Positions 36,352 to 41,310 of a DNA stretch of 64,000 nt are shown piece by piece (the first letter of the stretch is position 1; each line of letters begins with the position of its first letter). Made by a program: the position numbers and the translations under genes. The notes under the pieces are model-generated. The model made no database searches. It saw nothing but the letters and a program-made list of their open reading frames with translations, and had not been told where the DNA came from. Origin of the DNA: Oceanomicrobium sp. (GTDB lineage: Bacteria > Pseudomonadota > Alphaproteobacteria > Rhodobacterales > Rhodobacteraceae); assembly GCA_031415055.1 (NCBI GenBank), contig JANOQZ010000043.1:2612-66611 (forward strand). The letters run 5' to 3'.

Positions 36352-36948
36352 TTAGGACCATTGCAGCGGTGCATCGTCGATTCGCAGCGAGCTGACATAT
36401 TCGGTTCCCGGATGATCGTGGCCGGGAATTCCGCAAGATACGATTCCGTCGAAAGACGCTGGCTTAAGGGCGAAAGAGCTGGCCGTTCCAGCAATCTTGA
36501 TGCTTTCCATACCAGCCCGGTGATCGAGTGCGATGGCGGCGCGTCTGACGTCGAGGATCGTCGCGATGTTGGCTGTAAACAGAATGTCTCCGCCTGCCCG
36601 GCGCAGAAAGATACGTTGCTGGGCTTGCATTTGAGCGTCACTGGCGGTCTCAGCGACAAATAACTTGATTGACCAAACATCATCACCTTCGTCATCGTCA
36701 TAGAAACCGGCCATGACGACGTCAGTACCCGAAAGATCGACCTCGCCGAAATTGCCGTTGGCGATGTGCCAGCTCAAAATGAATTGGCAGACGCCAAAGG
36801 TTGAACGGACCCCCAGCACGCCGTTTTGGCGCCGACACGGACAAACTGCCTCGCAATTGCAGGCCTCGAAGTAGCTGCCGCCGATCGACCACGCGTCATT
36901 CGTCGCCAAAAGAACCTCCAACGTGATAGTTGTATCGCCGTGAAGCAT
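36352..36948 (-). CDS. DUF1326 domain protein
   Basis: Signature ...GSYFEACNCEAVCPCRR.... The start is ATG 36948, or upstream at 36978. Confidence 0.75.
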   Translation of the reverse strand: MLHGDTTITLEVLLATNDAWSIGGSYFEACNCEAVCPCRRQNGVLGVRSTFGVCQFILSWHIANGNFGEVDLSGTDVVMAGFYDDDEGDDVWSIKLFVAETASDAQMQAQQRIFLRRAGGDILFTANIATILDVRRAAIALDHRAGMESIKIAGTASSFALKPASFDGIVSCGIPGHDHPGTEYVSSLRIDDAPLQWS

Positions 36949-36990
36949 GAAGGCTGGGCGGCACATTGGCCAGATCAAACTCGGATCAGG

Positions 36991-39309: not shown

Positions 39310-39350
39310 AAATAAAAATCCCGCGCCTGCTGGGGTAAGCGGCGCGGGAT
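39310..39350 (-). terminator. intrinsic-terminator-like hairpin in the leader of the response-regulator operon
   Basis: Minus strand: ATCCCGCGCC-GCTTACCCCAGCA-GGCGCGGGAT (10-bp stem), then TTTTATTTGG, immediately followed by GGAG and ATG 39299. Confidence 0.4.
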
Positions 39351-39460: not shown

Positions 39461-39544
39461 CAGTGAATCGGCAACGAGAGGTTGGTAAGGTACACCTCTG
39501 CGTGCTTGGCAAATTAACCGCCAACAGGTTAGATTATATCAGCA

Positions 39545-39696
39545 GCCGCGCCTTCGGGAACGCCGAGGTCCTAAAGACCAAAGCACGGGCGGGGTATCCC
39601 CGCCTGCGAATGATGACCTGAACATACGTGGCATAACCTTCGCTTGGCTGCGCCAAGAACGGGTTATGCAGAACGAAGAATGGCCGAAGGCGCGGC
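39545..39696 (+). ncRNA. candidate retron msr-msd non-coding RNA
   Basis: Perfect 13-nt inverted repeat GCCGCGCCTTCGG (39545-39557) / CCGAAGGCGCGGC (39684-39696). It encloses hairpins at 39567-39579, 39586-39606 (GGCGGGG-TAT-CCCCGCC) and 39631-39669 (GCATAACC...CTTGGC-TGC-GCCAAG...GGTTATGC), and ends 17 nt before the RT ATG. Upstream are TTGGCA (39506) and TATATC (39534). Confidence 0.4.
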
Positions 39697-39713
39697 CGCG
39701 GTTTGGAAGGACC

Positions 39714-41135
39714 ATGCGAAAGAAAACATTCGCACGCAATCTGGCTGCCAGTATCGTCAATTCCGTCTGGAATTTCGACGCCGTGGCGGCGGATTTGGCG
39801 GCCATCTTGCCGCGAAAACTGCGCTGGGCGGGTGGCGAATTGGCTGGCGACATATTATTCCGCTGCAAAACGCCCTATGCACCGCCGCTGCCGTTTTTGG
39901 TCATTTACATCGAGAAATCGAATGCGTTCCACAAAGTGTTCAACCAACTTTTGCAGCGTGGGTATTGGCCGCAAGAACAGGAGTCCTCGCCGGAGATGCG
40001 CCCGGTGCCAAGTTTTGCCGAATTGCCCATTCCCAGATTGGTGACCAGCGCGGCGCTGGCGGATTGGCTGCACCTTACGACCGAAGAATTGGATTATTTC
40101 GCCGACCGGCAAGGCCGCGTTGAAGAGGCAGAGGAAGTTCGCATCAACCACTATTTCTATCACATCCTTGCCAAAAAGTCTGGTGGGCAACGGCTGATCG
40201 AGGCACCAAAAGCCAGATTGAAAGCCATACAACGACAAATTTTGCACGATATTCTCGACAGAATTCCACCGCATGGCGACAGTTTTGGCTTTGTGGCGGG
40301 GCGCAATTGTATCGACGCGGCGCGACGGCATTGCGGCGAAAATGTGGTGGTCAGTTTTGATCTGAAATCGTTTTTCAACGCGGTGCCAAGCGCCCGTATT
40401 CATGCGATTTTTCGCTGCCTTGGCTATCCCTATCCGGTAGCACAGGCGATGACGGGATTGGTCAGTGTGCAGACGCCACAGCGGGTGTTGTTGCGGATGG
40501 CGGCGGATCTGCGCCCGTATTTGACCGCGCCGCATTTGCCACAAGGCGCACCGACATCGCCCGCTTTGGCCAGTGCAGCGGCTTTTGGGCTGGATCGGCG
40601 ATTGCGCGGCTTGGCGCGGCACTTGACGGCCAATTACAGTCGCTATGCCGATGATCTGACCTTTTCGGGCGACAGGTCGATTGTCGCGCCTTTGTTGGGG
40701 CTGGTGCCAGAAATTGTGCGCGACGAAGGGTTTGCGTTGAATGCGGCCAAGACTAGGGTGACAGCGAAACACGCCGCGCAGGTTGTGACCGGGATTGTGG
40801 TCAACGAGCATGTGAACGTGTCGCGCAGCGCCTTTGATCACTTGAAAGCGGTGATCCATGCTTGCGCGAAAAAGGGTGATCCGCGCCTTATGCAGCCCGA
40901 ATTCGTGGCGCGGATGCATGGCCAGATTGGCTGGGTTGAAGCGGTCAATCCGGCGCGGGGGATGAAGTTGAGGGCGAGGTGGGAGGGGTGTTGGTCCAAA
41001 GCGAAACGATTAGAAAATAATGTGCCATTCTGCGCCCGAAAAGGCGCGACGGTGCGCAGCACCGGGAAGGGGGTCCGGGGGACCCACCTCAGCGCCGTGG
41101 GCGAGACGCCCGCCAAGCCGGTGGTCTTGATGTGA
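39714..41135 (+). CDS. retron-type reverse transcriptase with long N-terminal extension
   Basis: Motifs in order: ...GGQRLIEAPKARLKAIQRQIL, AARRH, SFDLKSFFNAV, LPQGAPTSPALA, RYADDLTFSG (YADD at 40644-40655), VTGIVVN (40785-40805). Start taken at ATG 39714 (GGAAGG upstream). The track start 39666 lies inside a hairpin of the putative ncRNA. Confidence 0.85.
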   Translation: MRKKTFARNLAASIVNSVWNFDAVAADLAAILPRKLRWAGGELAGDILFRCKTPYAPPLPFLVIYIEKSNAFHKVFNQLLQRGYWPQEQESSPEMRPVPSFAELPIPRLVTSAALADWLHLTTEELDYFADRQGRVEEAEEVRINHYFYHILAKKSGGQRLIEAPKARLKAIQRQILHDILDRIPPHGDSFGFVAGRNCIDAARRHCGENVVVSFDLKSFFNAVPSARIHAIFRCLGYPYPVAQAMTGLVSVQTPQRVLLRMAADLRPYLTAPHLPQGAPTSPALASAAAFGLDRRLRGLARHLTANYSRYADDLTFSGDRSIVAPLLGLVPEIVRDEGFALNAAKTRVTAKHAAQVVTGIVVNEHVNVSRSAFDHLKAVIHACAKKGDPRLMQPEFVARMHGQIGWVEAVNPARGMKLRARWEGCWSKAKRLENNVPFCARKGATVRSTGKGVRGTHLSAVGETPAKPVVLM

Positions 41136-41148
41136 CCTATCGAGAGGG

Positions 41149-41310
41149 CAGTGCCTGACTGGGCAGGTGCGAAGCGCCTGCCGAATGGCAGTCAGGCGCT
41201 GGCCGACCGGCGGGGCCGCTCGTCCGGTATTCAGGGACAGGTCGTGGCCTCGAATTGCCACGGGTCAATTCGAGGGGTGAAAGGTGGGGGATTCGAACGG
41301 AACCGCACCC
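41149..41310 (+). other. hairpin-rich segment immediately 3' of the RT gene
   Basis: Nested 12-bp + 9-bp stem (41149-41201), a perfect 10-bp stem CCTCGAATTG/CAATTCGAGG (41248-41275), and a 7-bp stem around GATTCGAACGGAA (41283-41309). Confidence 0.5.

Follow-up and report, generated by a model that had tools for sequence, protein, structure and literature searches.

Does a reverse transcriptase (RT) gene that stands by itself in a bacterial genome represent a lone enzyme, a retron that has lost its effector, or a retron of a kind that carries no effector beside it? The question is raised by a gene in a 64,000-nt stretch of DNA from Oceanomicrobium sp. (GenBank assembly GCA_031415055.1, contig JANOQZ010000043.1, positions 2,612 to 66,611 of the forward strand), which we refer to as the window and whose positions are used throughout. 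A first-pass annotation, made from the letters alone, had described the gene as a solitary retron-type RT and as the best candidate for a novel system in the window. Our analysis points to a more familiar identity: positions 39504-41135 quite probably form a compact, effector-less retron of the RT clade 11 lineage, consisting of a promoter, a 158-nt msr-msd noncoding RNA (ncRNA), and a 473-aa RT (Table 1). Judged from sequence comparisons, this retron appears to sit on a divergent branch that is found mostly in Alphaproteobacteria. The lineage has already been catalogued, and the locus adds a member to it, not a new system.

The gene encodes a retron-type reverse transcriptase

Retron RTs are recognized by two hallmarks: region X, an NAxxH motif that lies between RT2 and RT3, and region Y, a VTG that follows RT7. 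The open reading frame (ORF) at 39714-41135 encodes an enzyme of this type, as follows from its profile, PDB sequence, and fold matches together with the presence of both regions. Among PADLOC profiles the best matches were RT_other (429.6 bits, query aa 3-425) and RT_outgroup (described as "retron"; 409 bits, aa 5-423), followed by RT_XIII (306.9 bits, aa 102-435 only), with all remaining retron types below 220 bits. Sequence matches in the PDB were to retron RTs only (Ec86, Ec67, Ec78, Ec83, and others, with E-values down to 3e-27), in alignments that start at query residue ~145-152, and Pfam places RVT_1 at aa 153-352. Matches to the retron RTs of NCBIfam were all sub-threshold, with no named equivalog. 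An AlphaFold2 model built from 99 sequences (mean predicted local distance difference test [pLDDT] score 91.2, predicted template modeling [pTM] score 0.86) had Ec86 (7v9x_A) as its best Foldseek match, with a target-normalized template modeling (TM) score of 0.85, and retron RTs filled all of the top 18 places. Region X reads AARRH in the window and region Y reads VTG, and in the family alignment H206 of the former and G360 and N364 of the latter are invariant, so that both motifs, which the annotation had pointed out, are kept across the family. The 74 family members come from several phyla, and the median identity of their RT cores to that of the window is 45%. Compared with the nearest relative, the ratio of nonsynonymous to synonymous substitution rates (dN/dS) is 0.14 overall and 0.12 for the RT core.

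The gene might instead encode an RT of a group II intron, a diversity-generating retroelement, the abortive infection (Abi)/unknown group (UG) class, or the defense-associated RT (DRT) type. NCBIfam does return weak matches, one to a group II intron RT/maturase, whose cut-off of 300 bits is far above the 48.7 bits reached, and one of 24 bits to Drt2. However, every strong profile, sequence, and fold match is to a retron RT, regions X and Y are present, and a retron-type ncRNA lies directly upstream. On the PADLOC, PDB sequence, and Foldseek evidence we rejected a non-retron RT, which we regard as having a vanishingly small chance of being correct.

The ORF is intact, lies on the forward strand, and ends at 41135, with candidate starts at 39666 and 39714. 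The second of these (MRKKTF) coincides with the position of the initiator methionine in an alignment of 22 homologues and has an AAGGA Shine-Dalgarno sequence 5-6 nt on its 5' side, and it is preferred for these two reasons. With an intact frame, an RVT_1 domain, and flanking genes as had been described, the ORF, its RT motifs, and its solitary position are real. An antisense ORF of 354 aa (39855-40919, minus strand) is not a gene: it is a shadow ORF in G+C-rich sequence, and it clusters across loci only through the conserved RT on the opposite strand.

A conserved structured RNA lies directly upstream of the gene

The conserved ncRNA at 39542-39699 had no place in the first-pass annotation, and it is this structured RNA directly upstream that makes the locus a retron rather than a lone RT. 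As far as sequence can tell, the locus has every feature expected of a retron: the ncRNA is contiguous and contains a1/a2 repeats, msr hairpins, and an msd stem-loop, and the a1/a2 stem has two opposing G residues, G39558 and G39683, at its inner end. Eight leaders of the closest subgroup, mostly from Alphaproteobacteria, were used to train a covariance model (the subgroup model), which scored 152.8 bits at 39542-39699, its sole match in the window. In 49 of 81 related loci this model gave a single match, on the same strand as the RT and right upstream of it.

The structure is supported by covariation. In an alignment of 51 ncRNA sequences, 96.5% of cells are paired (37-47% in slid controls) and 32 of the 35 pairs have undergone compensatory changes. 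Such changes between loci affect all 13 pairs of the a1/a2 helices and 12 of the 13 in helices 4 and 5, those of the msd. In hairpin 2 the four inner G-C pairs are near-invariant and the outer pairs covary; its GGGG-N3-CCCC core was found in 68 of 73 family leaders and in nine of ten published clade-11 ncRNAs. The linker before a2 has a conserved "GA," and its final column is G in 40 of 41 sequences. The same ncRNA plan precedes the RT in relatives from Alphaproteobacteria, Acidobacteriota, Planctomycetota, Actinomycetota, Myxococcota, and Burkholderiales. Between the window and its nearest relative, L081, the 170-nt leader is 93% identical, compared with 77% at third codon positions of the RT.

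Conservation extends to the promoter-like site. L081 can be aligned with the window from GCTTGGCAAAT, at ~39503, and blastn similarity to a second close relative, L082, starts at 39504. From the placement of this site, transcription would be expected to start at ~39542, the first base of a1. A search of Rfam (E-value mode, 36-45 kb of the window) gave no match for the leader or for a structured region downstream of the gene that we describe below.

The retron probably belongs to RT clade 11

In the classification of Mestre et al. (2020; PMC7736814) there are 11 clades of retron RTs, of which clade 11 was a stand-alone cassette without a specifically associated protein and essentially restricted to Actinobacteria. 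A later census lists clade-11 retrons without a subtype and prints their ncRNAs (PMC10849725), and a 2026 preprint describing the SPIRE survey reports clade11-A as enriched in Pseudomonadota, Actinomycetota, and Acidobacteriota and as having low novelty priority (10.64898/2026.05.14.725207); the taxonomic spread of the window RT family agrees with that of clade11-A. The PADLOC profiles can be tied to this lineage through one related locus, L030 from Nakamurella sp. Just upstream of its RT, L030 has a stretch that matches the published ncRNA of Mestre-1840 (Nakamurella multipartita) along all 156 nt with 86% identity, and the L030 RT has the same profile ranking as the window RT (RT_other 569, RT_outgroup 535, and RT_XIII 299 bits). 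Thus, RT_other and RT_outgroup represent the clade-11 lineage.

The ncRNA supports the same placement. At 64 of the 81 related loci, a second covariance model, built only from ten published clade-11 ncRNAs (the clade model), has a match just upstream of the RT. With filters off it matches the window at 39582-39676, full model and in register, with 29.9 bits (next best 9.7), a weak match with an E-value of about 2e-5 for 2.5 kb. Through this weak match the leader falls in the clade-11 ncRNA structural family (A or B), and the common GGGG-N3-CCCC hairpin suggests that it is "A-like." The subgroup model detects the same sites in 40 further loci. The stand-alone arrangement holds as well, with no recurrent gene cluster beside the RT in ~80 related loci. 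Both the RT and the ncRNA thus appear to belong to an effector-less clade that had already been catalogued, and the suggestion of a novel system does not survive.

The next-closest profile would make the locus a type XIII retron (Mx162/Mx65-like, clade 10) that has lost its accessory genes for SWIM/winged-helix and HEAT-repeat proteins. RT_XIII ranks third at the score given above, and the alignment begins at position 106 of the profile, so type XIII RTs also have an N-terminal region of their own, ~100 residues long, ahead of the shared core. Yet RT_XIII scores 123 bits below RT_other and leaves aa 1-101 uncovered, the published type XIII ncRNAs share a ACCTTGCAA...CGGTG...TCGCCG motif that the window leader lacks by eye, and no accessory gene recurs at related loci. 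What marks type XIII, adjacent SWIM Zn-finger/winged-helix and HEAT/ARM proteins together with a type XIII ncRNA, was not found at the locus, and we hold this assignment to be highly improbable.

Table 1. Features of the predicted retron locus, in window positions
Feature	Position	Strand	Description and basis
Promoter-like site	39506..39535	+	TTGGCA, 18-nt spacer, TAGATT; consensus scan
Predicted retron ncRNA (msr-msd), 158 nt	39542..39699	+	Minimum free energy (MFE) -84.7 kcal/mol, z-score -5.56; covariance model match
a1 arm, closing inverted repeat (GCAGCCGCGCCTTCGG)	39542..39557	+	16 nt, 94% complementary, 126 nt between arms
Candidate branching (priming) G	39558	+	First unpaired base past a1; column G in 38 of 41 sequences
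msr hairpin 1	39562..39584	+	MFE structures; sequence and length differ between loci
msr hairpin 2, clade signature GGGCGGGG-UAU-CCCCGCC, core GGGG-N3-CCCC	39586..39606	+	Core motif counts, covariation
msd stem-loop	39631..39669	+	9-bp and 6-bp stems with internal loop; 18-nt inverted repeat
A/G-rich single-stranded linker (AGAACGAAGAAUGG)	39670..39683	+	Unpaired in every fold; last base is the opposing G39683
a2 arm, closing inverted repeat	39684..39699	+	Pairs with a1
Family-specific N-terminal domain, RT aa 1-100	39714..40013	+	Five-helix bundle, helices aa 3-14, 21-31, 39-50, 59-67, 70-82
Retron RT proper, aa 101-425	40014..40988	+	N-terminal helices, region X (AARRH), YADD aa 311-314, region Y (VTG), thumb
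Read-through tail, RT aa 426-473 and stop	40989..41135	+	Window-specific, outside the conserved protein

No effector accompanies the cassette

The genes around the retron are of ordinary kinds. The gene for an OmpR-type response regulator and that for a HAMP/HisKA histidine kinase diverge from the RT, a Bmp/PnrA-type ABC transporter is convergent with it, and genes for a DUF1326 protein and an FAA hydrolase lie farther upstream. No defense genes, and no co-oriented accessory ORF near the RT, were found in the window. The two-component system, DUF1326, FAA hydrolase, and Bmp neighbors bear out the annotation's description of a gene without an adjacent effector and outside a defense island. An assignment to anti-phage defense would call for an identifiable effector or a defense-island location, and the locus offers neither.

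Could an effector have been present and lost here, or be hidden among the neighbors of related RTs? We made crude gene calls on the ~80 related loci and clustered the products. No neighbor cluster recurs beyond near-identical genomes among these loci (E < 1e-8, 50% coverage), and immediately adjacent ORFs formed no recurring cluster at E < 1e-3. Co-oriented downstream ORFs of 430-550 aa, which occur in several loci and were considered as a hidden effector, do not match one another at E < 1e-3 except in near-identical genomes. The three nearest relatives (L081-L083) share with the window only 39504-40958, a 1.45-kb promoter-ncRNA-RT cassette at 87% DNA identity, and have genes for a purine nucleoside phosphorylase (PNP_UDP_1), serine hydroxymethyltransferase (SHMT), and a DUF1989 protein downstream of the RT. 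Because the flanking genes are entirely different, the cassette sits in different genomic contexts among close relatives. The annotation had allowed that orthologous loci might regularly carry an effector that was simply lost here; with no recurrent neighbor, and a lineage that has no effector next to the RT, the effector was not lost at this locus.

A family-specific N-terminal domain

The annotation had counted about 150 residues of N-terminal extension and stated that residues 1 to about 95 match nothing recognizable. Alignment to retron RTs shortens the extension: residue 53 of Ec86 aligns to query residue 152, residue 41 of Ec67 aligns to query residue 145, and the RT_XIII profile alignment begins at query residue 102. 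Since solved retron RTs and RT_XIII align from query residue ~100-150, the true extension is ~100 aa, and query residues ~100-150 are the usual retron N-terminal helices. The extension is also not without matches, as it is covered by both PADLOC RT_other and RT_outgroup and is kept in all family members as a conserved, family-specific domain. It is confidently modeled (pLDDT about 90-97 in the full model, 86 when modeled alone). A profile of the domain searched against 1.84 billion representative proteins gave 69 matches, every one at a protein N-terminus; these were full-length members of the RT family or shorter products resembling truncated gene calls, apart from four long repetitive proteins, which are spurious. 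Foldseek found no structural relative, the best E-values being 3.7 in the PDB and 0.94 in BFVD, and Pfam offered no matching family, with nothing below E 0.03.

Among the 74 family members the domain is constant in length (median 99 aa) and variable in sequence, with a median identity to the window of 18%; A11, L32, and P97 are the only positions at which 80% or more of the members agree. Across phyla there is no conserved polar or catalytic-type residue, and because conservation is confined to these three positions we see no catalytic-type residues in the domain. It is basic in 84% of members (median net charge +6) and under purifying selection (dN/dS 0.21). From its charge, its helical fold, and its lack of conserved catalytic-type residues, the domain is most likely a clade-specific nucleic-acid-binding or assembly module, and is unlikely to be an enzyme or toxin.

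The contrary possibility is that this helical domain is a built-in effector or sensor, which would make clade-11 retrons single-protein defense systems with the effector fused at the RT N-terminus. The domain is exclusive to the RT family and always N-terminal, its length and dN/dS indicate constraint, the model places it against the RT with confidence (pTM as given above), and no other effector candidate lies nearby in the related loci. However, three positions conserved across phyla at 18% median identity, no transmembrane segments by eye, and no fold match to a toxin, nuclease, protease, or other protein all count against it, and the basic charge fits nucleic-acid binding better. The described fused retrons of types I-C, VII-A1, XI, and XII, to our knowledge, all carry the effector at the C-terminus. 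We found no positive evidence for the annotation's idea that the N-terminal domain acts as the effector, given the lack of conserved polar or catalytic-type residues and of any match to a known fold, and we judge a built-in effector to be distinctly unlikely.

Every family member thus has a ~100-aa basic five-helix N-terminal domain, found nowhere else, alongside a near-invariant GGGG-N3-CCCC hairpin in the ncRNA. We did not find the domain, or its pairing with the hairpin, discussed in the papers that we consulted.

The C-terminal tail and the structured DNA beyond it

Homologues of the RT end at about aa 425-436. In the alignment with L081, an 88%-identical relative, a 23-nt gap deletes the native stop, and the tail that follows in the window is absent from L081; similarity to L082 ends at 40958. 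The tail of ~48 codons is unique to the window and predicted to be disordered (pLDDT <50 for aa 451-473), and it is an accident of local rearrangement. The annotation had the last 40 or so codons running into a highly structured region; this region at the 3' end is unrelated to the retron.

The loss of the native stop invites the reading that the cassette is a decaying remnant, one whose RT lost its activity through the rearrangement at its 3' end and which is turning into a pseudogene. It is consistent with this that the final 48 codons of the ORF come from unrelated, highly structured DNA and that the flanks differ wholly from those of the nearest relatives, a sign of rearrangement at the cassette boundary. 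But the 425 conserved codons are intact, without frameshift or stop and with all family invariants present, and dN/dS against the nearest relative is 0.14. Further, both the promoter and the ncRNA are undamaged and have changed less than synonymous sites have, and only the last ~10 native residues have been replaced, which are poorly conserved in the closest relatives. Decay is very unlikely in our view.

Several observations concern this end of the gene. In most family members outside the closest subgroup of the window, the RT C-terminus carries an I-x-W motif (I in 84%, W in 82%); the closest relatives lack it, and the window has C-W at the aligned position (aa ~426-427), possibly by chance. 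Positions 41020-41290 (plus strand), which lie past the conserved part of the RT and before the convergent Bmp gene, form a very stable multi-hairpin region (-149 kcal/mol, z-score -4.5) with no Rfam match and no copy in the window or related loci. We considered this region as a part of the retron and rejected it, given that it is absent from the nearest relatives and unrepeated in the window and related loci; a pattern scan of metagenomes gave three chance matches, without flanking similarity. The string GGTGGGGGATTCGAAC (41283-41298) is the reverse complement of a sequence resembling a tRNA T-loop and acceptor-stem 3' end (GTTCGAATCCCCCACC). It may be an old att-site remnant at a rearrangement boundary, a weak signal, as at least one match occurred in 15 of 100 shuffles with two mismatches allowed. 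A scan for tRNA and tmRNA genes found none in the window.

What the retron may make and do

Retron RTs prime DNA synthesis from the 2'-OH of a branching G, and by analogy canonical synthesis of multicopy single-stranded DNA (msDNA) is the most likely mechanism here. The RT would bind its own leader RNA, with the GGGG-N3-CCCC hairpin as the likely recognition element, and G39558 would provide the priming 2'-OH. The template would be copied from about 39683-39690 back to about 39598, within the 3' strand of hairpin 2, and the product would be a branched msDNA of roughly 85-95 nt. This extent is proposed by analogy with Mestre-1840, whose sequenced RT-DNA extends from the a2-proximal end to a point inside the 3' strand of this hairpin (PMC10849725 supplement). 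According to the same supplement, clade-11 members have been built and tested, RT-DNA was made, and editing was supported, including by Mestre-1875 and Mestre-1913 with RT-DNA at ~0.02 times Eco1.

For the downstream role of the msDNA-RT complex, Mestre et al. (PMC7736814) named two alternatives for clade 11, an effector encoded in trans or a different, possibly domesticated function, and we found no publication that settles the matter. The RT, the N-terminal domain, and the ncRNA are all under purifying selection. The complex may be a phage-sensing guard that either acts together with a partner from another locus or needs no separate toxin, which is our first preference; as a second preference, it may have a domesticated, non-defense role. 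Clade-11 retrons could also be self-sufficient two-part systems (the RT with its N-terminal domain, plus the ncRNA) that have no toxin partner and in which the N-terminal domain acts as sensor/effector or the complex has been domesticated. We offer this tentatively and consider it on balance unlikely; if true, both self-sufficient alternatives would be retron modes of action not yet described.

Several points weigh against a functional clade-11 retron as set out here. With default filters the clade model misses the window leader, which scores below most other loci, and on RT_other the window RT lies 60-140 bits below three other family RTs (430 vs. 569 for L030); these lower scores mark the window subgroup as divergent. 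The assignment was made from a profile-ranking proxy and the ncRNA, in place of the Mestre reference tree of 1,928 sequences. The msDNA data come from relatives such as Mestre-1840, not from the window locus or its closest subgroup, and RT-DNA from clade-11 retrons is low in E. coli, at 0 to 0.02 times Eco1 by polyacrylamide gel electrophoresis (PMC10849725 supplement). The altered C-terminus could impair RT function, and the argument for a nucleic-acid-binding role of the N-terminal domain draws on charge, helical fold, and the lack of catalytic-type residues only.

A single locus is of little weight in itself; what it adds is a divergent, mostly marine alphaproteobacterial branch to a lineage catalogued in 2020. 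That lineage, whose members have been sampled experimentally for genome editing, raises the question of what a retron does without an effector. The co-occurrence of the N-terminal domain and the GGGG-N3-CCCC hairpin may help to frame experiments, and the compact 1.45-kb cassette of promoter, ncRNA, and RT is a ready-made construct for tests of msDNA production.

Two further features lie outside the retron cassette. A perfect 10-bp inverted repeat, ATCCCGCGCC ... GGCGCGGGAT (39318-39350), stands upstream of the response-regulator start codon and is followed by a T run on the minus strand, giving it a terminator- or attenuator-like look; L081 lacks it. The DUF1326 protein (36352-36978, minus strand), encoded between the histidine kinase and FAA-hydrolase genes, is apparently unrelated to the retron.

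Comparison with known retrons

Type XIII (RT clade 10; Mx162, Mx65, and Sa163) has the next-closest profile and likewise carries additional sequence, ~105 positions, ahead of the shared RT core. The two N-terminal regions are without detectable sequence similarity, with the alignment starting at query aa 102. Further, the conserved ncRNA motif differs, and the SWIM/winged-helix and HEAT/ARM accessory genes of type XIII are absent in the window.

The other orphan msr-msd-RT cassette without an associated protein is the Retron-Eco5 (Ec107)-like branch of RT clade 2 (PMC7736814). It belongs to a different RT clade, and its profile, RT_Ec107-like, scores only 156.7 bits for the window RT; with 307 positions, it aligns to query aa 145-413 and has no counterpart of the N-terminal domain. 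The ncRNAs are unrelated.

The fused retrons of types I-C (RT-Toprim, Ec67), XI (RT-protease), and XII (RT-TIR) likewise consist of one protein and one ncRNA with no separate effector gene. In these systems an enzymatic effector is located at the C-terminus, whereas the extra domain in the window is N-terminal, small, and helical, with no catalytic residues conserved.

The closest likeness is to clade 11, exemplified by Mestre-1840, Mestre-1875 (Myxococcus xanthus DZ2), and Mestre-1913 (Nocardia salmonicida). The window branch differs in being composed mostly of marine Alphaproteobacteria (such as Yoonia, Maritalea, and Cognatishimia) and little sampled in 2020, in its lower profile and covariance model scores, and in the sequence of the hairpin 2 outer stem and the msd apex; the window copy differs also in its 48-aa read-through tail. 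What they have in common is the RT profiles that rank first, the same as for the ncRNA-tied locus L030; the ~100-aa N-terminal domain; an arrangement without an accessory gene; and an ncRNA plan of a1/a2 repeats, a variable hairpin, the GGGG-N3-CCCC hairpin, an msd stem-loop, and an A/G-rich linker.

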